A stretch of 64,000 bases of DNA, taken from NCBI GenBank assembly GCA_045633565.1, contig JAZQYO010000030.1, positions 26,075-90,074 of the forward strand, written 5' to 3'. The stretch comes from Clostridia bacterium. GTDB taxonomy: Bacteria > Bacillota > Clostridia > RUG12999. Position 1 is the first letter of the stretch; the number at the start of each line of letters is the position of its first letter. The notes under the pieces were generated by a model. The model ran no database searches and was not told the DNA's origin. It saw nothing but the letters and a program-made list of their open reading frames with translations. The position numbers and the translations under genes were made by a program. This document shows positions 34,052 to 64,000 of this stretch, in pieces.

Positions 34052-34060
34052 AAAGATATA

Positions 34061-34133
34061 CTTTTACATGACTGACGGTTTCGCGGAGCACCGCGGGGGA
34101 ATGTAAAAGTTTTTAAGCCGACCGTCTGGGCAA
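34061..34133 (+). ncRNA. ZMP/ZTP-sensing (pfl) riboswitch aptamer
   Basis: P1 CTTTTACAT/ATGTAAAAG enclosing GACTGACGG and the GCGGAGCACCGCGGGG hairpin, short linker, then GCCGACCGTCTGGGCA; pseudoknot GACGG/CCGTC; lies upstream of pfl as is typical. Confidence 0.9.
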
Positions 34134-34168
34134 TTCGCGATTTTCCGCGGGTTGCCCTTTTTTGTTTT
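34128..34168 (+). terminator. Riboswitch expression-platform terminator
   Basis: GGGCAATTCGCG-ATTTTC-CGCGGGTTGCCC-TTTTTTGTTTTT overlaps the aptamer 3' GGGCA. Confidence 0.85.
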
Positions 34169-34182
34169 TCTAAAAAGGAGAG

Positions 34183-36414
34183 ATGGCTATGACAGAAAAA
34201 AACTGGAACGGATTTAAAGGTGAACTCTGGAAAAAAGAGATTAATGTTCGTGATTTTATTCAGGCAAACTATAAAGAATATACCGGCGATGCATGTTTTC
34301 TTGCCGGAGCGACAGCACGCACAAATGACCTGATGAAAAAGGTCCGGGCGCTTTTTGCACTTGAAAGGCAGTATGGCGGTGTTTTAGACATTGACACAAC
34401 AACAGTTTCTTCGCTGACCAGCTACTCACCGGGATATGTAGATAAAGACAATGAAATTATCGTAGGTATGCAGACAAACAGGCCACTTAAACGTGGTGTA
34501 AATCCCTTTGGAGGAATGAGAATGGTGCGTCAGGCGTGCGAAGCCTACGGATATAAGCTCAGTTTAAAGGTTGAGGAGGAATTTACCTACCGTACAACCC
34601 ATAATGACGGTGTTTTCCGTGCATATACCGATGAAATGAGACAGGCAAGAAAATGCCATGTTATTACGGGTCTGCCTGACGCTTACGGCAGAGGAAGAAT
34701 AATTGGTGACTATCGCAGAGTTGCACTTTATGGTGTTGACAGACTTATTGAAGAAAAGAAAAAGGATAAATCAAAGCTTGCAAACGGTATTTTTGATACG
34801 GAAAACATCCGGTTGGATGAAGAGCTTTTTCAGCAGATAACCTTTTTGGGATATATGAAGGAAATGGCGGCAATGTACGGGTTTGATATTTCTCGTCCCG
34901 CAGAAAATGCAAGGGAGGCTATTCAGTGGACCTATTTCGCTTATCTTGCTGCGATAAAAGAACAAAACGGTGCTGCAATGTCACTTGGCAGAGTGAGTAC
35001 TTTCTTTGATATTTACATTGAAAGGGATATAGCTGCCGGTATACTCACTGAGGAAACTGCACAGGAGCTTATGGACGATTTTGTTATAAAACTCCGTATG
35101 GCAAGGCACCTCAGAACCCCCGAATATAATGAACTTTTTGGCGGTGACCCCATGTGGATTACCGAAGCGGTAGGAGGTATGGGTGAGGACGGAAGAACGC
35201 TTGTTACAAAAAGCAGCTACCGTATGCTCAACACTCTTTATACTCTCGGCTCATCTCCTGAGCCAAATCTTACGGTACTATGGTCAAATTCGCTGCCGGA
35301 AAATTTCAAAAACTTCTGTGCGAAAGTGTCGGCGGACACCGATTCAATTCAGTATGAAAACGACGATATAATGCGCCCCATTTACGGCGACGATTATGCC
35401 ATTGCCTGCTGCGTATCCGCAATGAAGGTTGGTAAACAGATGCAGTTTTTCGGAGCAAGATGCAACCTTGCAAAACTGCTTCTCATCGCCATTAACGGTG
35501 GTTATGACACCACAAGCGGTATGCACATCGGACCGCAGATGCCTGTGATGGAAAACCTTGAATTTGATAAGGTTATGGAGCGTTTTGATATTTACATTAA
35601 ATGGCTGAGCCATCTTTATGTCAACACCATGAACGTTATCCATTATATGCACGATAAATATGCTTATGAAAAAACGCAGATGGCACTTCACGATACACAG
35701 GTTGAACGCCTGATGGCGTTTGGAATTGCGGGTCTTTCAGTTGTTGCAGATTCGCTCAGCGCAATAAAATATGCAAAGGTTACAGCTGTTAAAAATGAGG
35801 ACGGATTTATAACCGATTTTGAAAGAGAAGGCGATTTCCCCAAATTCGGCAATGATGACGACCGTGTGGACCTTATTGCAAAGGACATGACGCACAGGGT
35901 TATAACAGAGCTTCGGAAAACACCAACCTACAGAAATGCAGTTCACACCCTGTCGGTGCTTACAATAACCTCCAACGTTATGTACGGCAAAAACACAGGG
36001 GCAACCCCGGATGGCAGAGAAGCGTCAGCACCTTTTGCACCGGGTGCAAACCCAATGCATAACAGGGAGGAAAATGGTGCACTGGCATCCCTTAACTCAG
36101 TTGCGAAAATCAGTTATGACGACTGCCGTGACGGTATCTCAAACACATTCTCTATCACCCCCGAAGCGCTTGGCAGAACCGAGGAAGAAAGGACGAAAAA
36201 TCTTGTATCGGTTCTGGACGGTTATTTTGCCAAAAAAGCGCATCATATAAACGTAAACGTACTGAATAGAGAAACTTTGATGAAAGCATACGATGACCCT
36301 GAAAGCTACCCCAATCTTACCATTCGTGTTTCCGGATACGCTGTTAACTTCAACAAGCTGTCCCGTGAACAACAACGTGAGGTCATCAGTCGCACATTCC
36401 ATGAGGCAATGTAG
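34183..36414 (+). CDS. pflB: Pyruvate formate-lyase (formate C-acetyltransferase)
   Basis: [23 protein letters not shown] (Cys-Cys), LTIRVSGY (glycyl radical). Confidence 0.96.
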
Positions 36415-36416
36415 TT

Positions 36417-37121
36417 ATGAAGGGAAGAGTACATTCTATTCAGACGCTCGGTACGCTTGACGGACCGGGGGTGAGATTTGTGGTGTTTTTACAAGGGTGC
36501 AATCTGCGCTGCAAATGCTGTCATAACCCGGACACATGGGATGTGTCGGACGGAAAAGTTTTTTCTGCTGATGAGATAGTGAAAAAAGCGGTGAGATATA
36601 AAGAATATTATGGGACAGAAGGCGGAATAACTTTATCAGGTGGGGAACCGCTTTTGCAGGCGGAATTTGCCCGCGAGATTTTTTCTCTTTGCCATAAAGA
36701 AAAAATAAACACCTGTCTTGACACCTCGGGAAGCCTACTGAATGAAAAGGTTAAGGCACTTCTTGAGGAAACCGACCGCGTGCTTCTTGATATAAAATAT
36801 ACAACCGACGAACTTTATCTTGAAAACGCAGGGTGCAGACTAAGTGGGGTGCTGGATTTTCTGTCATACGTTAACGTAAAAAGCATCCCCACAACGCTCA
36901 GACAGGTTATTATTCCTACCATGAATGACAGTGAGGAAAACATTTTACAATTAAAGGAAATTGCAAAAAATCATCCTTGTGTGGACAAAGTTGAGCTTTT
37001 GCCCTTTAAAAAAATATGTCAGACAAAATATGATGAAATGAAAATTCCTTTTCCGCTTAGGCATCTGCCACAGCCGGAAAAGGAACTGATGGAAAAACTG
37101 ACAAAACTCTTTGATGGTTAA
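36417..37121 (+). CDS. pflA: Pyruvate formate-lyase activating enzyme (radical SAM)
   Basis: DGPGVRFVVFLQGCNLRCKCCHNPDTW, GITLSGGEP, LDTSG. Confidence 0.95.
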   Translation: MKGRVHSIQTLGTLDGPGVRFVVFLQGCNLRCKCCHNPDTWDVSDGKVFSADEIVKKAVRYKEYYGTEGGITLSGGEPLLQAEFAREIFSLCHKEKINTCLDTSGSLLNEKVKALLEETDRVLLDIKYTTDELYLENAGCRLSGVLDFLSYVNVKSIPTTLRQVIIPTMNDSEENILQLKEIAKNHPCVDKVELLPFKKICQTKYDEMKIPFPLRHLPQPEKELMEKLTKLFDG

Positions 37122-56100: not shown

Positions 56101-56176
56101 GGGCGCATAGCTCAGCTGGGAGAGCATCTGCCTTACAAGCAGAGGGTCACAGGTTCGAGCCCTGTTGTGCCCACCA
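56101..56176 (+). tRNA. tRNA-Val (TAC)
   Basis: Cloverleaf, anticodon loop CT-TAC-AA, GTTCGAG T-loop, encoded CCA. Confidence 0.95.
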
Positions 56177-56182
56177 TACCAT

Positions 56183-56259
56183 GGCCCGGTAGTTCAGTTG
56201 GTTAGAACGCTAGCCTGTCACGCTAGAGGTCGAGAGTTCGAGTCTCTTCCGGGTCGCCA
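56183..56259 (+). tRNA. tRNA-Asp (GTC)
   Basis: Anticodon arm CTAGC-CTGTCAC-GCTAG, encoded CCA. Confidence 0.95.
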
Positions 56260-56278
56260 CTTTTTAAAAAGTGTGTTC

Positions 56279-56354
56279 GCCTCTGTAGCTCAGTTGGTAG
56301 AGCAGGGGACTGAAAATCCCCGTGTCGGTGGTTCGATTCCGCCCGGAGGCACCA
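56279..56354 (+). tRNA. tRNA-Phe (GAA)
   Basis: Anticodon arm GGGGA-CTGAAAA-TCCCC, encoded CCA. Confidence 0.95.
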
Positions 56355-56360
56355 AAATAT

Positions 56361-56435
56361 GCGGGAGTGACTCAGTGGTAGAGTGTCACCTTGCCAAGGT
56401 GAAAGTCGCGAGTTCGAATCTCGTCTTCCGCTCCA
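56361..56435 (+). tRNA. tRNA-Gly (GCC)
   Basis: Anticodon arm TCACC-TTGCCAA-GGTGA, encoded CCA. Confidence 0.95.
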
Positions 56436-56440
56436 CGAAT

Positions 56441-56470
56441 GAAAAAGACGCACTTAGCTGCGTCTTTTTC
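56441..56470. terminator. Terminator-like hairpin between tRNA-Gly and tRNA-Cys
   Basis: GAAAAAGACGCA-CTTAGC-TGCGTCTTTTTC. Confidence 0.7.
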
Positions 56471-56493
56471 ACTAAAAAACTAAATAATTATAA

Positions 56494-56567
56494 GGCACCA
56501 TAGCCAAGTGGTAAGGCAGAGGTCTGCAACACCTTTACCCCCAGTTCAAGTCTGGGTGGTGCCTCCA
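56494..56567 (+). tRNA. tRNA-Cys (GCA)
   Basis: Acceptor GGCACCA/TGGTGCC, U73 discriminator, anticodon arm GAGGT-CTGCAAC-ACCTT, encoded CCA. Confidence 0.93.
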
Positions 56568-56576
56568 GAAAGTCCA

Positions 56577-56602
56577 AATACCACCCGAACGGGTGGTATT
56601 TG
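56577..56602 (+). terminator. Terminator after the tRNA cluster
   Basis: AAATACCACCCG-AA-CGGGTGGTATTT. Confidence 0.7.
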
Positions 56603-56668
56603 ACTTTATAAAAAAATAGTGGTATAATAGATAGCTGAACAAAAATTTTATTATAGGAGATAAATGTT

Positions 56669-57868
56669 ATGATATTATCAGAAAATCTTGACCATGTATA
56701 TTCAGACATCAGGGGCGACATTTACATGCACGCACTTGAACTTGAAAAACAGGGGAATAAAGTGCTCAAATTAAACACAGGAAACCCTGCTGCGTTCGGA
56801 TTTAAAATGCCGGACAGCATTAAAAACAGAATTGTTACCGATGTTGAAAAAGCGCTGGGCTATTGCGATTTAAAGGGTATGCCGGTTGCAAGAGCCGCTA
56901 TCAGGGATTATCACCTGTCAAAAGGACTTAAAAACATCACTGAAGATGATGTTTTTATCGGAAATGGTGTAAGTGAAGTTGCACATATGATTATTGCATC
57001 TCTTGTGGGAAAAGGTGATGAAGTTCTTGTTCCTACTCCGTGCTATTCTCTGTGGACAAACTTTACATACCTTTCAGGCGGTAATGTTCGTTTTTATGAA
57101 TGTGATGAAGCGAACGGATGGCAGCCTGATATTGACAGCATTAAAAAAGCTGTTACCAATAAAACAAAAGCTATTGTTGTTATAAACCCCAACAATCCTA
57201 CAGGTGCTTTATATTCAGAAGAAATTCTGCTGGAAATTATTGATATTGCACGTAAAAACAATCTTGTTCTTATCTCTGACGAGATATACGACAGACTTGT
57301 TATGGATGAAAAACAGCACACATCTACAGCTGCCCTTGCTGATGATGTAACAATAGTTACAATGAATGGTCTTTCCAAATCACACTGTATATGTGGCTTA
57401 AGATGCGGATGGATTTGCCTCAGTGGCAGGGAAGAAGAAAAGAAGGTGCTGAGAGATGCTCTTGTAAGAATTGCATCTGTAAGACTTTGTTCAAATGCTC
57501 TTATGCAGCTGGTAATTCCCGATGCACTTAGCGACCCTGAATACACTAAAGATATGATTGGTACAAACGGCAGAATTTTCAGACAGAGAGAAGCTACAAC
57601 ACAGGAACTTGATAAAATTGACGGAATAACCTATGTGAAAAACTCGGCTGCATTTTACCTCTTCCCCAAAATAGACATTAAAAAGTTCGGTTTTGAAAGC
57701 GACAGAGACTTTGCAAGACAGCTGCTCGATGAAAAACACATATTAATAATACCGGGAAGCGGCTTTAACTGCGTAGATAAAGAACATTTCAGAATTGTAA
57801 TGCTTCCTGAAGAAAATGCATTGAGAGATGCTATAAGAAGTATTGGCGATTTTTTGGCAAAAAGATAA
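56669..57868 (+). CDS. alaA: PLP-dependent class I/II aminotransferase (AlaA/AlaT-like)
   Basis: LKLNTGNPA.FGF, GNGVSE, INPNNPTG, SDEIYD, NGLSKS (PLP Lys), G.RCGW. Confidence 0.85.
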   Translation: MILSENLDHVYSDIRGDIYMHALELEKQGNKVLKLNTGNPAAFGFKMPDSIKNRIVTDVEKALGYCDLKGMPVARAAIRDYHLSKGLKNITEDDVFIGNGVSEVAHMIIASLVGKGDEVLVPTPCYSLWTNFTYLSGGNVRFYECDEANGWQPDIDSIKKAVTNKTKAIVVINPNNPTGALYSEEILLEIIDIARKNNLVLISDEIYDRLVMDEKQHTSTAALADDVTIVTMNGLSKSHCICGLRCGWICLSGREEEKKVLRDALVRIASVRLCSNALMQLVIPDALSDPEYTKDMIGTNGRIFRQREATTQELDKIDGITYVKNSAAFYLFPKIDIKKFGFESDRDFARQLLDEKHILIIPGSGFNCVDKEHFRIVMLPEENALRDAIRSIGDFLAKR

Positions 57869-57872
57869 GTTA

Positions 57873-57908
57873 AATAATCCCGCCGTCACTGACGGCGGGA
57901 TTATTTTA
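57873..57908 (+). terminator. Intrinsic terminator after the aminotransferase gene
   Basis: AATAATCCCGCCGTCA-C-TGACGGCGGGATTATTTT. Confidence 0.85.
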
Positions 57909-57937
57909 TTGAAGCCCAAAAATTTTTAAAAAAACTA

Positions 57938-57966
57938 TTGACAAAATTAAACTCACGTGATATAAT
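57938..57966 (+). promoter_or_regulatory. Sigma-A promoter of the T-box leader
   Basis: Perfect TTGACA-N17-TATAAT. Confidence 0.88.
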
Positions 57967-57974
57967 TCATAAAA

Positions 57975-58252
57975 ATAAACGCAATGATACGGAATAGTAT
58001 GTGAGCACCTTTACCCTATAGAGAGATGCCGGTTGGTGTAAGGCATTGGGGAGGGTTTGCAGAACTCACCGTGGAGCGGCTGCTGTGAAATTAAAGTAGG
58101 GGCAGACGGGAACTCCCGTTACAGAGTTAAGATGTGTTGGCATCTAAAGTGCATCCGATAAGGGTGAAAAAGAGTGGTACCGCGGAAAGTTAAATTTGTT
58201 TTTTAACGTTTTCGTCTCTTTGAATCGACAAGGAGACGGAAGCGTGTTTTTG
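57975..58252 (+). ncRNA. T-box riboswitch, Leu-specific (specifier CUC)
   Basis: Stem I with AGAGA/GGTG distal motifs, specifier loop GAA-CTC-A (58064-58066), AGTA in stem II, CCGTTA, T-box AGAGTGGTACCGCG (58171-58184; UGGU fits tRNA-Leu A73), terminator ACGTTTTCGTCTC...GAGACGGAAGCGT-GTTTTT. Confidence 0.9.
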
Positions 58253-58298
58253 TTGATTAATACATATTTTAGTATAAAGAGGAAAGGGGATTTTTTAA

Positions 58299-59687
58299 AT
58301 GAGAAAAATCAATATCACAGACATCACACTCAAAAAGCTCTCGCAGGACAGAGAGGTTTCACTTTTGTTCCGTGAGAAAACTGCAATAGCTGCGTGTGCA
58401 GATTCACTTGGCGTTGATGCCATTGAACTTGCACCTGTAAAAAACGTTCGTGAAGATACTATTATTTATAAAACAATAGCTCAGAACACTCTCAGCAGAA
58501 AGGTTGTAATTCCGGCAGGATTTACTGCTGAAGAAGTGGACGCAGCGTGGGAATGCGTAAAGGATGCAAAATATCCCCGTCTGCAGATTGAGCTTCCGGT
58601 TTCAACTGTTCAGATGGAATATATCTATCATGTAAAAGCTGATAAAATGGCAGTGAAAATAGCCCAGCTTACAGCTCATGCAAAAAAACTTTGCGGTGAC
58701 ATAGAATTTGCGGCGCTTGATGCAACAAGGGCGGATGAGGAATTTTTAATTCAGGCTGCAAAAGAGGCAGAAGCAAATGGTGCAGGAATTATCACAATTT
58801 GCGATGATGCAGGAGTATCGCTTCCGGAAGAAATTGCACAGCTTGTAAAGAAAATCAAAGCGGCAGTAAAAATTCCTGTATATGTTCAGGTGTCTGACCG
58901 TATTGGTATGGCGGTTGCAGCGGCGGTAGCGGCAATCGGTGCAGGCGCAGACGGAATTAAGTGTGCAATGGCATCGGGAGATGCACTGTCTATGGGAGAA
59001 TTTTCAGATGCGATAAGTGCGCGCAGTGAAGCAATCGGCGCTGAAACCGGACTTAAAAATACCAAAATTCATGCAAGTATTGACGAAATGCTTGAAAGCA
59101 TAAATCATCAGGCTTATGAAACTGAAGAAAAAGTAAGTGAAAAGAAAAAAATCCTGCTTGACAGCGACAGCACAATTTCGCAGGTAGCTCAGGCGGCACA
59201 GGTTCTCGGTTACGACCTGTCTGATGGGGACTGTGGCAATGTTCACAAAGCACTGATGCAGGTTTGTGAGAAAAAGGCGTCAGTTGGGGCAAAGGAATTT
59301 GAGGCACTCATTGCAAGCTCTGCTATGCAGGCGCCCTCTACATATCATCTTGAAAGCTATAGCACAAACTGCGGTAACCTCACAAGCTCAATGTCACAGG
59401 TTACACTCAGAAATGGAGATGAAATTCTCTGTGGTGTAAGCACAGGCGACGGTCCTATTGACTCTGCATTCCGTGCAATTGAACAATGCATTGGTTATCA
59501 CTATGAGCTGGATGATTTTCAGGTTCAGGCTGTAACTGAGGGTAAAGAAGCTCTCGGTTCTGCGCTTGTAAGACTTCGTAACAATGGCAAGCTTTATTCA
59601 GGAAACGGTATTTCAACCGACATTGTTGCGGCAAGTATCAGAGCATATATTAACGCACTGAACAAGATTGTATTTGAGGAGGAATAA
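58299..59687 (+). CDS. LeuA (2-isopropylmalate synthase)-like protein with a degenerate catalytic barrel and an intact C-terminal regulatory domain
   Basis: Collinear with LeuA (DATRAD, DDAG..LP, LGYDLS, GDGPIDSAFRAI, STDIVAASIRAYINALN) but DTTLRDGEQ is DITLKKLSQ, HxH is QVS, and the GERAGN motif is absent. Confidence 0.85.
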   Translation: MRKINITDITLKKLSQDREVSLLFREKTAIAACADSLGVDAIELAPVKNVREDTIIYKTIAQNTLSRKVVIPAGFTAEEVDAAWECVKDAKYPRLQIELPVSTVQMEYIYHVKADKMAVKIAQLTAHAKKLCGDIEFAALDATRADEEFLIQAAKEAEANGAGIITICDDAGVSLPEEIAQLVKKIKAAVKIPVYVQVSDRIGMAVAAAVAAIGAGADGIKCAMASGDALSMGEFSDAISARSEAIGAETGLKNTKIHASIDEMLESINHQAYETEEKVSEKKKILLDSDSTISQVAQAAQVLGYDLSDGDCGNVHKALMQVCEKKASVGAKEFEALIASSAMQAPSTYHLESYSTNCGNLTSSMSQVTLRNGDEILCGVSTGDGPIDSAFRAIEQCIGYHYELDDFQVQAVTEGKEALGSALVRLRNNGKLYSGNGISTDIVAASIRAYINALNKIVFEEE

Positions 59688-59688
59688 G

Positions 59689-62145
59689 ATGAAACTCGCA
59701 TTTTCAACTAAAAATGTAAATCGTGCATCTTTCCTCGATACCTGCCGTTATGCTTATGATTACGGATTTTCGGGATTTGAAATATATGATGCGGTTAAAG
59801 AAAGAAAGTCACATTATGACAGTATTCTCCGCAGTGACAGAGTGTCTGATGCAAAAAGAAAGCTTTTAAACCGCGGACTTTCTGTGTCTGCACTGACATA
59901 TCCTTGTTCGCTGGAAAGTGATGAGGCAACTTCAGAATCAATTGTGAAGTATGTGGATATGGCGGCAGGTGCGGCAATAGAACGTGTTATTGTCCGTGTT
60001 GAAAAGGAAACTGAAAACACAGTCCTTGCCCAAAAGCTCGGGGAAGCGATTAAAAGGGCAGAACAGGCAGATGTCCAGATTTTGATTGAAACGGTTGGGT
60101 ATCTTTCCAAAACTGAAAAGGTTATTGATATAATAAACTTTTTCTCTTCTGCGGCAGTTGGCGCTTCCTGGAATATCAGGGCGACATATTTTGATGCAGG
60201 AGAAAGTGGTGAAACAACCATTAAAAACTTAGGGGCATATATTAAATATGTGCGCCTGGGCGACATGGCAGACGGGAAAACGGTTCTTATTGGTGAAGGA
60301 GAACTTCCGGTAGATAAAATTGTAAATGCGCTTTCTTCACTGAACTACGATGGCTTCGTATGCGTAGCGTGGAATGAGGAAATTAACGATGCGGACATTG
60401 TTCTGACACATTTTGCAAACTATATCGCATCGCTGAGCAGGGACAAAAAGGAATATGACAAAGCATACTACAACAGAGCCAAAACAGGTACGTTTGTATG
60501 GAAAAAATACGATATTGTTGATGCTACATTCTCGGATGTTCTTGACACAATGGTGGAAAAATATCCTGACCAGTATGCTTTCAAATACACAACGCTTGAT
60601 TACACAAGAACTTATAAAGAGTTCCGCAGAGATGTTGATGAATGTGCAGCTGCACTCATTTCTCTCGGTGTAAAAGCAGGGGACCATGTTGCTGTCTGGG
60701 CAACAAATGTTCCGGCTTGGTTTATTACCTTTTGGGCAACAACCAAAATCGGGGCAGTTCTTGTAACAGTAAATACGGCTTATAAAATTCACGAAATTGA
60801 ATATCTTTTAAAACAGTCGGACACTCATACTCTTGTTATGATTGAGGATTGCAAGGACATTAACTACCGTGAAATTATTCGGGAGCTTTGCCCCGAGCTT
60901 GAAAATCTGCAGCCGGGAGATGCGTTATATACAAAAAATCTGCCATTTTTGCGCAATGTTATAACAGTAGGGTTTTCCATGCCCGGCTGTCTGACATGGG
61001 AGCAGATGCTTTCCCGTGCAAAAATGGTTCCGCATGAAGAGGTAAGAAGACGAGCATCACTCGTTAAGCCTGACGATGTATGTAATATGCAGTATACATC
61101 AGGCACAACAGGTTTCCCCAAAGGGGTTATGCTTACACACAGAAATATTGTAAATAACGGCAAAACCATCGGTGACAGAATGGATTTATCCACTGCTGAC
61201 CGTATGATGATTCAGGTGCCAATGTTCCACTGCTTCGGCATGGTACTTTCCATGACATCCATGATGACTCACGGTGGTACACTTTCGCCAATGCCATATT
61301 TCTCGCCAAAATCATCTCTGGCGTGCATCAACGAAGAACGCATAACCTGTTTCAACGGCGTTCCTACAATGTTTATTGCACTCTTCAACCATGCTGATTT
61401 TGCCAAAACCGATTTTTCATATATGCGCACCGGAATTATGGCGGGTGCAAACTGCCCGGCAGACCTTATGCGACGTGCAGCCGATGAAATGAATATGAAG
61501 GAAATCATTTCGGTTTACGGTCAGACAGAGGCGTCGCCTGGTTGTACAATGGGCGAGGTTAATGAAGATATTGACCACCGTGTTGAAACTGTCGGAAGTG
61601 CGTTCCCGGGAGTTGAATGTAAAATTATTGACCCCGAAACAGGGGAAGAACTCCCCGATGGCGAAAGCGGAGAGTTTGTTGCACGTGGATTTAACATCAT
61701 GAAAGGTTATTATAAAATGCCTGAAGCTACCGCGCAGACAATTGATGCTGACGGTTGGCTCCACTCAGGGGATATCTGTTGCCGTACCCCGGACGGATAC
61801 TATAAGGTAACGGGTCGTCTTAAGGATATGATTATCCCGGGCGGTGAGAACCTTTATCCTCGTGAGATTGAAGAATTTTATCTCACACACCCCAAAGTTC
61901 GTGACGTGCAGGTTGTAGGCGTTCCGGACGAAAGATACGGAGAAGAATGTTGCGCATGGATTATTCTTCATAAGGGGGAAGAATCGGACGAAAATGAAAT
62001 GCGTGAATTCGGTAATTCGGCAATTGCCCGTCATAAAGTTCCGAGATATTTTGTTTTCGTAAAAGAATTCCCGATGAATGCAGCGGGGAAAATTTTAAAA
62101 TACAAAATGCGTGAAGAATCAGCGCAGATGCTGGGGCTTAAATGA
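59689..62145 (+). CDS. Acyl-CoA synthetase (AMP-binding, fatty acyl-CoA ligase/YngI-like) fused to an N-terminal xylose-isomerase-like TIM barrel
   Basis: ATG at 59689 after GAGGAGG; N-terminal ~250 aa of the sugar-phosphate isomerase/epimerase (AP_endonuc_2) type; ANL motifs QYTSGTTGFPKG, YGQTE, GWLHSGD, GRLKD, terminal GKILK lysine. Confidence 0.9.
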   Translation: MKLAFSTKNVNRASFLDTCRYAYDYGFSGFEIYDAVKERKSHYDSILRSDRVSDAKRKLLNRGLSVSALTYPCSLESDEATSESIVKYVDMAAGAAIERVIVRVEKETENTVLAQKLGEAIKRAEQADVQILIETVGYLSKTEKVIDIINFFSSAAVGASWNIRATYFDAGESGETTIKNLGAYIKYVRLGDMADGKTVLIGEGELPVDKIVNALSSLNYDGFVCVAWNEEINDADIVLTHFANYIASLSRDKKEYDKAYYNRAKTGTFVWKKYDIVDATFSDVLDTMVEKYPDQYAFKYTTLDYTRTYKEFRRDVDECAAALISLGVKAGDHVAVWATNVPAWFITFWATTKIGAVLVTVNTAYKIHEIEYLLKQSDTHTLVMIEDCKDINYREIIRELCPELENLQPGDALYTKNLPFLRNVITVGFSMPGCLTWEQMLSRAKMVPHEEVRRRASLVKPDDVCNMQYTSGTTGFPKGVMLTHRNIVNNGKTIGDRMDLSTADRMMIQVPMFHCFGMVLSMTSMMTHGGTLSPMPYFSPKSSLACINEERITCFNGVPTMFIALFNHADFAKTDFSYMRTGIMAGANCPADLMRRAADEMNMKEIISVYGQTEASPGCTMGEVNEDIDHRVETVGSAFPGVECKIIDPETGEELPDGESGEFVARGFNIMKGYYKMPEATAQTIDADGWLHSGDICCRTPDGYYKVTGRLKDMIIPGGENLYPREIEEFYLTHPKVRDVQVVGVPDERYGEECCAWIILHKGEESDENEMREFGNSAIARHKVPRYFVFVKEFPMNAAGKILKYKMREESAQMLGLK

Positions 62146-62146
62146 T

Positions 62147-62176
62147 AAAACAGGGCTACTTCGGCAGCCCTGTTTT
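62147..62176 (+). terminator. Intrinsic terminator closing the T-box operon
   Basis: AAAACAGGGCT-ACTTCGGC-AGCCCTGTTTT. Confidence 0.85.
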
Positions 62177-62195
62177 AAATAATAAAGGTGTAGAT

Positions 62196-62339
62196 ATGAA
62201 AATTATTTTTGCAATTATTCTGGTAGCAGCGGTCTGTCTTTTCATATACCTTATCGGTAGAAAAGGGGATATAAAGAAAAATTGTAACAGCTGCATAAAC
62301 TGTCCCATAAAAGATTGCGCCGAAAGAAAAGAAGACTAA
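62196..62339 (+). CDS. Small membrane-anchored Cys-rich protein (FeoB-associated Cys-rich type), 47 aa
   Basis: ATG at 62196 after AAAGGTG; TM helix then CNSCINCP..C. Confidence 0.7.
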   Translation: MKIIFAIILVAAVCLFIYLIGRKGDIKKNCNSCINCPIKDCAERKED

Positions 62340-63076
62340 TTAAGGTCTATGTACTGTGAATTTGCGTAGCCGACTATTCCGTTATAACCAACAACATACC
62401 AGCCGTCGGTTGTTCCGTAAACGGTGACGGTTGCACCGTCGGGAATACCCCCTTTGCTGTAAGAAGCAGTTGTGGGACGGGTTCGGATATTTAGATATGC
62501 TCCATCTGAATCTACAGTTCCGGTGCGGATTGGCTGGGGCTCAATAAATGGAATGCCGAAAAAGTCGACAAGAGAGATTGAGACATTTTTGGCAATTAAT
62601 TCCACGTTATTTCTTATCCATGCGGCGTCCTGCGGATTGTCATGATACGCAAATTCGATAAATGCAGCAGGCGCACGGGTTTGAGTGACCTCGCCGATTG
62701 AGGTGGTGGCTTCTGCTCTTGCCGGGGTGGAATAGGGGTAGATTTCATCTAAATTATTAGCGATTATTGTCGACGCACGCTGACCTTCCGGGTCATTTGG
62801 GGAGTAAAACACAATCGGCCCCTGAAGCTGACCGGAAAGCTCATCGGGTGAGGCGTTTGAGTGAAGTGCGAGATGAAGGTCATAGTTTCCGGCGTTGGAC
62901 TGGATGATTGACTGGGCGGCATTCATCTGCGGAGAGTTGCGCGTAAACTGGATGCCGCTGGCAGTTAGATAAGGTTCCATTGCATCGGCAATAAGGTTCA
63001 TATAAAGCTCTTCGTTGCCACCGCCGACGTAAGGATTAAATTCCTGAGTGGATGGGCTTAAATATATTCTTGGCAT
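62336..63076 (-). CDS. N-acetylmuramoyl-L-alanine amidase (Amidase_3) with a C-terminal SH3b domain, likely sporulation-related
   Basis: IYLSPSTQE, EELYMN, LALHSNA, AFIEFAYHDN; SH3b LNIRTRP...GWYVVGYNGIVGY; no signal peptide. Confidence 0.88.
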   Translation of the reverse strand: MPRIYLSPSTQEFNPYVGGGNEELYMNLIADAMEPYLTASGIQFTRNSPQMNAAQSIIQSNAGNYDLHLALHSNASPDELSGQLQGPIVFYSPNDPEGQRASTIIANNLDEIYPYSTPARAEATTSIGEVTQTRAPAAFIEFAYHDNPQDAAWIRNNVELIAKNVSISLVDFFGIPFIEPQPIRTGTVDSDGAYLNIRTRPTTASYSKGGIPDGATVTVYGTTDGWYVVGYNGIVGYANSQYIDLN

Positions 63077-63194
63077 AAAGCATCTCCTTTTGTCCGCCCT
63101 GAGGCGGACTTTTTTACATATATATGCAGCTTAAAATAAAAATTGCATAACTTTTTAAAAGTAGTTTATCCTATAAAATAATATATAAAGTCAA

Positions 63195-63223
63195 TTGACA
63201 ACAAAGGTAAATTATGGTATAGT
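63195..63223 (+). promoter_or_regulatory. Sigma-A promoter of the oadG-biotin carrier operon
   Basis: TTGACA-N17-TATAGT with upstream TG. Confidence 0.7.
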
Positions 63224-63317
63224 GTACAATGGGGTGGGATTGAAAACAAATTTACCCCGACATAAATTTATTTAATAATTTTTTGTATAATGACAAGCAA
63301 AAAAAGGAGGTGCTTTT

Positions 63318-63605
63318 ATGATAAGCAACTGGTTTGTCGTAGCAATGGGTCTTGGCACAGTATTTGTAGGACTCATCTGTATTATTTTTATTTCAATGTT
63401 AATGAGCTTCATCTGCAGAGGCCTTGTTAAAAACAAGCCTGAGGAAAAGGCAGCGCCGAAAGCCCCGGTAGCGAAAGTATCCGCAGCGGCACCGGCAGAA
63501 ATCGCAAACAAACAGGAGTTTGTTGCGGCTGTTTCTGCGGCGATTGCTGAATTTTCAGGATGCAGCGCAGAAGCTATCAGAATTCACTCAATCAAAAAAG
63601 TTTAA
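63318..63605 (+). CDS. Na+-translocating decarboxylase gamma/delta subunit (OadG family)
   Basis: MGLGTVFVGLICII TM helix, Ala/Pro linker, VAAVSAAIAE...IHSIKKV. Confidence 0.88.
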   Translation: MISNWFVVAMGLGTVFVGLICIIFISMLMSFICRGLVKNKPEEKAAPKAPVAKVSAAAPAEIANKQEFVAAVSAAIAEFSGCSAEAIRIHSIKKV

Positions 63606-63631
63606 GTTAAAAACAGAAAGGAACAATTATT

Positions 63632-63985
63632 ATGAAAACATATCGTGTAAACGTTAACGGAACAAACTATGAAATCCAGGTTGAAGAAATTTCAGCATCA
63701 GAAGCTAAAAGTGCTCCTGCTCAGGTACCCGCTCAGGCACCTGCGGCAGCTCCTGTGGCAGCTCCGGCCGGCGGTGAAGCAGTAAACAGCCCTATGCCCG
63801 GCACAATACTTTCAGTTAATGTTAAAGCAGGGGACGCTGTTAAAGCAGGCGACGTACTTATGATTCTTGAAGCTATGAAAATGGAAAACGAAATTTGTGC
63901 TCCTTGTGATGGCACAGTTGCGTCAGTTTCTGTAAATCAGGGCGCAACAGTTGAAACAGGCACACCTCTCTGCACAATTGCTTAA
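63632..63985 (+). CDS. Biotin carboxyl carrier protein of a Na+-translocating decarboxylase (MmdC/GcdC-like)
   Basis: [10 protein letters not shown], Ala/Pro linker, [16 protein letters not shown] biotinylation motif; an RBS (GGAGG) for a following gene lies at the window edge. Confidence 0.93.
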
Positions 63986-64000
63986 GTCACCGGAGGATTA

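Follow-up and report, generated by a model that had tools for sequence, protein, structure and literature searches.

Why should a leader that senses leucine shortage control a protein shaped like 2-isopropylmalate synthase (LeuA), which lacks the catalytic motifs of that enzyme, together with an acyl-coenzyme A (acyl-CoA) ligase? The question is raised by a two-gene operon at positions 57938-62186 of the window, a stretch of 64,000 nucleotides (nt) from a Clostridia genome (contig JAZQYO010000030.1). Many fibre-degrading bacteria of the rumen and hindgut require isovalerate, isobutyrate, and 2-methylbutyrate, and there is applied interest in supplying ruminants with them in the feed. The genes that activate branched short-chain acids, and the control of those genes, have to our knowledge not been defined. 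Work by Allison, Bryant, and co-workers in the 1960s reportedly established that rumen bacteria reductively carboxylate isovalerate, isobutyrate, 2-methylbutyrate, and phenylacetate to amino acids. The rumen route is mentioned in PMC7356843. The regulation, conservation, and genomic context of the operon, set out below, make it rather probable that this leucine starvation-induced unit encodes the leucine-specific entry step of a route from branched volatile fatty acids to branched-chain amino acids; the gene pair probably fills a long-standing gap at the leucine-specific entry into branched-acid salvage.

All elements of the operon lie on the forward (+) strand. Its sigma-A promoter (57938-57966) consists of TTGACA, a 17-nt spacer, and TATAAT with an extended -10 TG, and it was the only 12/12 match found in a promoter scan of 56500-64000. 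A T-box leader follows at 57975-58222 and is matched by Rfam RF00230 over the whole model (positions 1-219 of 219; 136.3 bits versus a gathering score of 93; E 3e-30). In the register of that model the specifier position reads GAA-CUC-A, which presents the leucine codon CUC, and the T-box sequence AGAGUGGUACCGCGG contains the tRNA acceptor-end bulge UGGU. The leader ends in an intrinsic terminator (58206-58255), the hairpin of which (58206-58245) has a 17-pair stem, folds at -24.9 kcal/mol (z -5.4), and precedes a U run; the letters after the stem are GTTTTTGTTG / GUUUUUGUUG. The antiterminator folds at -13.1 kcal/mol, and since the 5' strand of the terminator, CGUCUCUUU, is also used by the antiterminator helix, the two structures are mutually exclusive. 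The leader thus combines a full-model score above the gathering score with a specifier codon, a UGGN bulge, and a competing terminator. Gene 1 (58299-59687; 462 amino acids), referred to here as pseudo-LeuA (pLeuA), is separated by 1 nt past its stop codon from the ATG of gene 2 (59689-62145; 818 amino acids), referred to as the TIM-ligase. A longer, TTG-started open reading frame (ORF) for gene 2 (59668) appears in the ORF list, but conservation places the start at the ATG at 59689. The unit closes with an intrinsic terminator (62146-62186), made up of a hairpin at 62146-62177 (-17.9 kcal/mol, z -6.0) and a U-rich tail. An AlaT-like aminotransferase gene upstream (56669-57868) has its own promoter and terminator; it is therefore transcribed separately, and the operon consists of two genes. 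A chance pair of ORFs was considered as a reading of genes 1 and 2 and was rejected.

In gene 1, a linker connects a DRE-TIM barrel to a LeuA-type regulatory domain; in Pfam terms, HMGL-like (PF00682) covers residues 4-225 and LeuA_dimer (PF08502) residues 331-457 (110 bits). Its top family matches are all 2-isopropylmalate synthase models, but every NCBIfam equivalog for that enzyme scores it at less than half of its cut-off (249 versus 532 bits for the best, NF002086, and 228 versus 599 bits for TIGR00973). Upon alignment with the catalytic domain of Listeria LeuA (3EWB), TLRDGEQ is replaced by TLKKLSQ, HCHDD by VQVSD, and the GERAGN loop by SGDALSMG. A search of 1.84 billion representative proteins recovered more than 120 clusters of relatives at 50% identity, the full-length members of which have 455-480 residues and are 30-51% identical to gene 1. 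All three LeuA motifs are lost in every one of these clusters, with substitute residues that vary by member, and all three DRE-TIM metal ligands are gone from the family. True LeuA sequences, found lower in the same search list (approx. 500-516 amino acids), keep TLRDGEQ, HCH.D, and GERAGN. In the sources, the proteins of the pair are named 'hypothetical protein', '2-isopropylmalate synthase', or 'AMP-binding protein'.

The most conserved region of the gene 1 family is the regulatory domain, which shares 35-43% identity with that of true LeuA, versus 27-33% for the barrel, and keeps the motifs GDGPID(A/S)AF and STDI..AS.RAY.NALNK, or, in a looser consensus, G(D/N)GP(I/V)D(A/S)AF and STDI..AS..AY.NA.NK. 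An AF2 model of gene 1, built from 94 diverse family members, reached a mean pLDDT of 87. Its first Foldseek matches were methylthioalkylmalate synthase (MAM1) and LeuA, including the Leu-bound M. tuberculosis structure 3FIG over the full length, and its barrel superposes on that of Listeria LeuA (3EWB) with a root-mean-square deviation of 1.8 Å. The modelled protein shares the two-domain fold of M. tuberculosis (1SR9/3FIG) and Listeria LeuA, in which an eight-stranded barrel is joined by a linker to a doubled beta-beta-beta-alpha regulatory domain. It differs from LeuA in that no member keeps the metal-binding Asp of RDGEQ, either His of HxH, or the GERAGN loop, each being substituted or deleted; moreover, it is approx. 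40 residues shorter, never adjoins leuBCD, and always has the TIM-ligase behind it. Gene 1 is a LeuA fold without the canonical active site.

Gene 2 joins a divergent xylose-isomerase-like TIM domain (residues 1-270) to an ANL acyl-CoA ligase (residues 271-818). The ligase extends over residues 288-801 in its Pfam matches (AMP-binding, PF00501, 320 bits; AMP-binding_C, PF13193, 62 bits). It carries YTSGTTGFPKGV, YGQTE, SGD, GRLKDMI, and the C-terminal GK, all of which could be read in the sequence and in an alignment to 8WEU; core motifs A3, A5, A7, and A8 and the A10 lysine are present and are invariant in 20 relatives. Among curated ligase subfamilies NF009233/PRK12583 comes closest, but with 673 bits (model positions 15-555 of 558) gene 2 stays below the cut-off of 832 and is not a member of it. 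Residues 20-230 of the TIM domain match PF01261 (AP_endonuc_2; 52.5 versus 31.1 bits), the score by which the N-terminal 270 residues are placed among the xylose-isomerase-like barrels, and a profile of 43 such domains reached only MJ1311 (3WQO; E 4e-7) among solved structures. The canonical metal site of these barrels, which we take to be Glu-Asp-His-Glu at correspondingly presumed positions of 3WQO, is represented in gene 2, in these alignments, only by the first Glu (E134) and one Asp (D192), the other expected positions being occupied by N162, A165, Y187, R189, and A227. The domain thus appears to lack most canonical metal ligands, a provisional reading in view of the failed structure model of gene 2. 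We know of no other fusion of a xylose-isomerase-like TIM domain to an ANL ligase. In sum, the initial annotation, which had read from the letters a promoter, a Leu (CUC) T-box, a terminator, and between them two genes spaced by 1 nt, a LeuA-shaped first one without catalytic motifs and a second one with intact ANL motifs, proved accurate on each of these points; the apparent loss of metal ligands in the TIM domain had escaped it.

The pair is inseparable among its relatives. A genome scan with a 19-sequence alignment of gene 1 as the query and one genome per species revealed at least 598 species-level genomes that hold a gene 1 relative. The best 80 loci were kept (designated L plus a number), and all come from uncultured gut or rumen Clostridia, namely, Oscillospiraceae, Acutalibacteraceae, Christensenellaceae, one Lachnospiraceae, and others. 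In each of these 80 loci, the gene 1 homologue is directly followed by a TIM-ligase, and so it is in all seven distant loci that were sampled via a 30%-identical family member (pLeuA 30-43% identical), which amounts to 87/87 overall; the two genes are 1 to a few nt apart or overlap. Across loci, identity ranges over 58-95% for the ligase domain, 30-89% for pLeuA, and 26-86% for the TIM domain, and the latter two evolve two to three times faster than the ligase. Such a pattern fits one catalytic part accompanied by two accessory parts. No leuB, leuC, leuD, or true leuA was found in the window, nor did the 80 loci contain one. One of the seven distant loci, from a metagenome-assembled genome binned as Victivallales (L084, 592-7291), shows the order ilvB-ilvN-ilvC-pLeuA-TIM-ligase without a T-box, with the pair in the usual position of leuA; it represents either a genuine occurrence outside the Firmicutes or a binning artefact.

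The leucine riboswitch is conserved as well. T-boxes in relatives were called by Rfam together with a loose pattern; a strict pattern missed variant leaders. A T-box precedes gene 1 in approx. 70 of the 77 loci that have enough upstream sequence. Among 69 MAFFT-aligned leaders the specifier is CUC in 67, CUG (also Leu) in one, and CCC in one; L071 and L080 contribute two further CUC leaders, and the register was confirmed by Rfam alignments of the relatives. A CUC T-box is also present in four of the seven distant loci. In L004 (7510-7760), L005, L008, and L009, the T-box is replaced by a consensus promoter, a conserved leader ORF of 34-36 codons, and a strong terminator, and an Rfam E-value scan of the L004 leader revealed no degenerate T-box. 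The leader ORF has an Ile/Leu run, ILLLIAIIILAI, within the pattern …ANILLLIAIIILAI…NSAVCRV…, and presumably acts as a leader-peptide attenuator in place of the riboswitch.

What the ligase is for is indicated by the genes around its relatives, which were compared by clustering all ORFs of the 80 loci and by using Pfam-annotated contigs for the distant ones. The recurrent neighbours include the alpha subunit of a VorB-type 2-oxoacid:ferredoxin oxidoreductase (546 bits versus a cut-off of 399), its beta and gamma subunits, a 68-residue ferredoxin, a small P-loop protein, and an IlvE class-II branched-chain aminotransferase (BCAT; ilvE_II, 503 versus 307 bits). The pair is co-located with both the oxidoreductase and the BCAT in L004, L005, L008, L009, L060, L063, L067, L085, L087, L089, and L090. 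In L004, L005, L009, L085, and L089, these pathway genes lie downstream of the ligase on its strand and are separated by short gaps. L004, L005, L008, and L009 share the order pLeuA, TIM-ligase, BCAT, P-loop, VorBAC, ACS, although the L008 locus breaks off inside VorB. In L085 and L089, a single same-strand run comprises the Leu T-box, pLeuA, TIM-ligase, BCAT, the P-loop protein, ferredoxin, and Vor alpha, beta, and gamma, and the Leu T-box before pLeuA is the only attenuator in the run. In L071 (11891-12925) and L072, an amino-acid dehydrogenase of the Glu/Leu/Phe/Val type stands directly after the ligase, in the place of the aminotransferase, and would offer another way of taking 2-oxoisocaproate to leucine at the end of the route. 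An additional gene, for an Amidohydro_2 protein (PF04909, approx. 270 amino acids), comes right after the ligase in 25 of the 80 loci (e.g., L019, 11870-12682) and before the T-box in L064, L065, L085, and L089; it is absent from the window.

A second kind of ligase would account for the other branched-chain amino acids. In 38 loci, and often twice in one locus, the pair is accompanied by a ligase of approx. 760 residues with HTH_3, Cupin_2, and AMP-binding domains, which resembles S. aureus MbcS (453 bits to NF047394). The T-boxes of these MbcS-like genes specify Ile (AUC) in 26 cases and Val (GUA) in 14 and never Leu; examples are found at L021 11946-12185, L063 500-732, L024 11908-12146, and L047 7291-7531 (- strand). 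The simplest reading is that every branched-chain amino acid has an acid-CoA ligase of its own, controlled by the cognate T-box, and that all these ligases feed a shared Vor oxidoreductase and aminotransferase. As the sister ligases carry Ile and Val T-boxes, the TIM-ligase is left as the Leu-specific member, and its substrate should consequently be isovalerate. The direction of the pathway is suggested by L063, where ACS, P-loop, VorB, VorA, VorC, and BCAT lie behind a Val T-box in a same-strand run; the oxidoreductase and the aminotransferase are thus switched on at amino-acid shortage, which argues for anabolic use.

Together, these data suggest the following mechanism. By way of the leader, uncharged tRNA-Leu(GAG) stabilises the T-box antiterminator, and both genes are then transcribed. 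To judge from its context, which supports this step strongly, the ANL domain of gene 2 would convert isovalerate (or a very similar branched acid), ATP, and CoA into isovaleryl-CoA. A VorB-type oxidoreductase, supplied with reduced ferredoxin, would carboxylate isovaleryl-CoA to 2-oxoisocaproate, and an IlvE-type aminotransferase, or a Leu-type dehydrogenase in some genomes, would complete the synthesis of leucine; in the genome under study, these downstream enzymes would be encoded elsewhere. The role of gene 1 is the weakest step of the scheme. The lost active site, the retained effector domain, the translational coupling, and an evolutionary rate similar to that of the degenerate barrel of the ligase point to a non-catalytic, leucine-binding partner, and it is plausible that pseudo-LeuA serves as a leucine sensor. 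Probably unable to condense its former substrates, and made in a fixed ratio with the ligase, gene 1 most likely binds the ligase, perhaps via the degenerate TIM domain of the latter, and may thereby impose leucine feedback on the ATP-consuming committed step. Such feedback would mirror the inhibition of LeuA by leucine in the classical pathway.

Several observations weigh against this proposal. No VorB-type oxidoreductase or IlvE-type BCAT occurs within approx. 58 kb upstream and 10 kb downstream of the operon, as judged from the window and the closest relatives; no identical entry was found for the gene 1 protein, and context was read from a locus whose ligase is reported to be 100% identical. 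The sole aminotransferase near the operon in the window is the AlaT-like one, and the pathway partners of this organism are thus assumed. Both isovalerate as the substrate and the direction of flux are deduced from the specifier and the neighbours, and the interaction of pLeuA with the ligase and its binding of leucine are predictions. A single-sequence and profile search of the regulatory domain against solved structures gave no relevant match, so the leucine-contact residues could not be mapped, and the AF2 model of gene 2 (20 close homologues) was unusable, with a mean pLDDT of 35. The conserved polar residues of both TIM barrels could point to a catalytic or ligand-binding role instead of a purely regulatory one. 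The TIM-ligase belongs to another ANL subfamily (PRK12583-like) than the Ile and Val ligases, which makes the parallel between them not one of homology, and the Amidohydro_2 gene that often accompanies the pair has no explanation in the proposed pathway. Finally, the leader of L002 (upstream of 2903), otherwise typical, reads CCC (Pro), and L075 and L079 are without any attenuator. The CCC specifier of L002 may stem from an error of assembly or else from the change of a single base, by which the switch would be retargeted. The reading put forward in the initial annotation, namely, a ligase that feeds leucine synthesis and is regulated by a repurposed LeuA, was therefore only partly upheld. The conservation of the pair (87/87 loci), its linkage to Leu T-boxes (approx. 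70/77 testable loci, nearly all CUC, and 4/7 distant ones), the lack of co-transcribed leuB/C/D, and the clustering, with co-transcription in some loci, of 2-oxoacid:ferredoxin oxidoreductase and BCAT genes in relatives agree with it, but the last two genes are not found near the operon in the window.

A bolder form of the proposal holds that the dead paralogue of LeuA, the feedback-regulated enzyme that opens the classical pathway, was recruited as a leucine-sensing subunit for the enzyme that opens an alternative one, an isovalerate-CoA ligase, and docks on the degenerate TIM barrel of that ligase, and that this pair, together with ligases under Ile, Val, and Phe T-boxes, constitutes an unrecognised, tRNA-sensed regulon for acid-to-amino-acid salvage with a wide distribution in gut and rumen Clostridia. 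It is offered tentatively, and we would lean against accepting it as a whole. The Phe branch would be represented by a PaaK-like ligase gene preceded by a UUC T-box (L016 5444-5688 and L021 5492-5737; also in L019 and L053), which hints at an analogous route from phenylacetate to phenylalanine under tRNA control.

One alternative, an unlikely one, assigns the ligase to lipid rather than amino acid synthesis: it would supply isovaleryl-CoA as a primer for iso-branched fatty acids when leucine, the usual source of that primer, is scarce, in parallel to MbcS of S. aureus. The resemblance of the neighbouring ligases to MbcS speaks for this alternative, as do the known properties of that enzyme, a characterised branched short-chain acyl-CoA synthetase (PMC10026030) that uses exogenous acids to make branched-chain fatty acids (PMC10026030, PMC11167679). 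A leucine shortage would also deplete the pool of lipid primers, so that T-box control would not be absurd for such a role. However, T-boxes sense the charging of tRNA and hence the demand of translation, and an aminotransferase and Vor co-transcribed under Leu and Val T-boxes would be needless if the acyl-CoA were the end product. The Leu-type dehydrogenase after the ligase in L071 and L072 is likewise unaccounted for by a lipid role, and no fab genes were found near the pair. As for the enzymes themselves, gene 2 is an ANL ligase like MbcS and would, as proposed here, likewise activate exogenous branched short-chain acids; gene 2 differs in its subfamily, its N-terminal TIM domain, its obligatory pseudo-LeuA partner, and its proposed purpose, which is amino-acid instead of lipid synthesis. 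We are not aware of T-box regulation of MbcS. The lipid and leucine roles could also coexist.

It is improbable, too, that pseudo-LeuA, the TIM domain, or both are active enzymes of a new chemistry that, with the ligase, process another leucine precursor, such as a hydroxy-, oxo-, or dicarboxylic branched acid. This idea draws on the near-invariant polar residues that both barrels hold (D8, E107, Y108, K113, D141, R144, and D169 in pLeuA; E31, D34, E38, H42, D44, R48, E134, R164, D192, D234, D236, and H241 in the TIM domain). It also gains from the Victivallales pair, which occupies the usual place of leuA after ilvB-ilvN-ilvC, and from the Amidohydro_2 gene found with the pair in many loci, since that family includes reversible decarboxylases and hydrolases. 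Nevertheless, the DRE-TIM metal ligands and the GERAGN loop are gone and their substitutes vary by member, the TIM domain appears to be without most of the residues that align to the Glu-Asp-His-Glu site, and sequence change in the two accessory parts is two to three times faster than in the ligase domain. An ordinary LeuA isoenzyme in a leu operon, or a leucine-catabolic operon built around a YngI-like ligase, is very improbable and was rejected in both forms: the former is favoured by the family matches of gene 1 and the names of some relatives but is contradicted by the family-wide absence of the catalytic motifs, by equivalog scores below half of the cut-offs, and by the lack of leuA, leuB, leuC, and leuD in the window and the 80 loci, and the latter, suggested by the best subfamily match of the ligase (PRK12583, which we take to be related to B. 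subtilis YngI), would require induction in the direction opposite to that given by uncharged tRNA-Leu.

Entry of isovalerate into leucine synthesis, the reading preferred here, would place the operon in a familiar setting with unfamiliar parts. It follows the same predicted logic as the reductive carboxylation described for rumen bacteria, and the genes for a CoA ligase, a 2-oxoacid:ferredoxin oxidoreductase, and an aminotransferase are clustered in the relatives. The classical rumen work is not known to have identified activating enzymes, tRNA-sensing control, or a regulatory pseudoenzyme, and the locus adds candidates for all three. The leader belongs to the same riboswitch class as those of known T-box supply operons, which govern aminoacyl-tRNA synthetases, biosynthesis, and transporters (PMC2494555), and its specifier likewise matches the amino acid supplied; here, the cargo is an acid-CoA ligase and a pseudoenzyme. 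The terms 'CoA', 'AMP-binding', and 'ferredoxin oxidoreductase' do not occur in the text of the 2008 T-box survey (PMC2494555), from which it follows that no such cargo was reported there. In the searchable literature, which leaves most subscription journals outside, neither the pair nor a pseudoenzyme derived from LeuA nor T-box control of acid-CoA ligases was found to be described. Thus, the T-box amino-acid supply operon and the physiological route are known, and the uncharacterised ligase architecture and the pseudoenzyme partner would be the new elements.

The locus and its relatives offer testable candidates for each part of the route: a ligase per amino acid under the matching T-box and a shared Vor oxidoreductase and aminotransferase. 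If the proposal is true, the pair would be a clear case of a biosynthetic enzyme turned into a regulatory pseudoenzyme for a competing pathway, and annotation would be corrected, since relatives are now named '2-isopropylmalate synthase' or 'hypothetical'. Auxotrophies could also be better predicted from gut metagenomes, as a genome that lacks leuABCD and holds the pair may make leucine.

Some other features of the window were observed in passing. The operon terminator is followed at 62196-62339 by a 47-amino-acid ORF with one hydrophobic helix and a Cys-rich tail (CNSCINCPIKDC), for which no Pfam match was found; a longer reading of 65 amino acids overlaps the ligase stop codon and crosses the terminator and is probably not real. 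Farther downstream, at 63318-63985 and continuing in L081 (13630-16961), are OadG-like, biotin-carrier, OadB, and OadA-type genes, which look like those of a Na+-pumping decarboxylase and have no evident tie to the operon. Just upstream of the AlaT-like aminotransferase gene, five tRNA genes (Val-TAC, Asp-GTC, Phe-GAA, Gly-GCC, and Cys-GCA) occupy 56101-56567. A ZMP/ZTP riboswitch (pfl motif, 66 bits) lies at 34058-34138, directly upstream of genes at 34183-37121 that, in translations read by eye only, resemble pyruvate formate-lyase and its activating enzyme.

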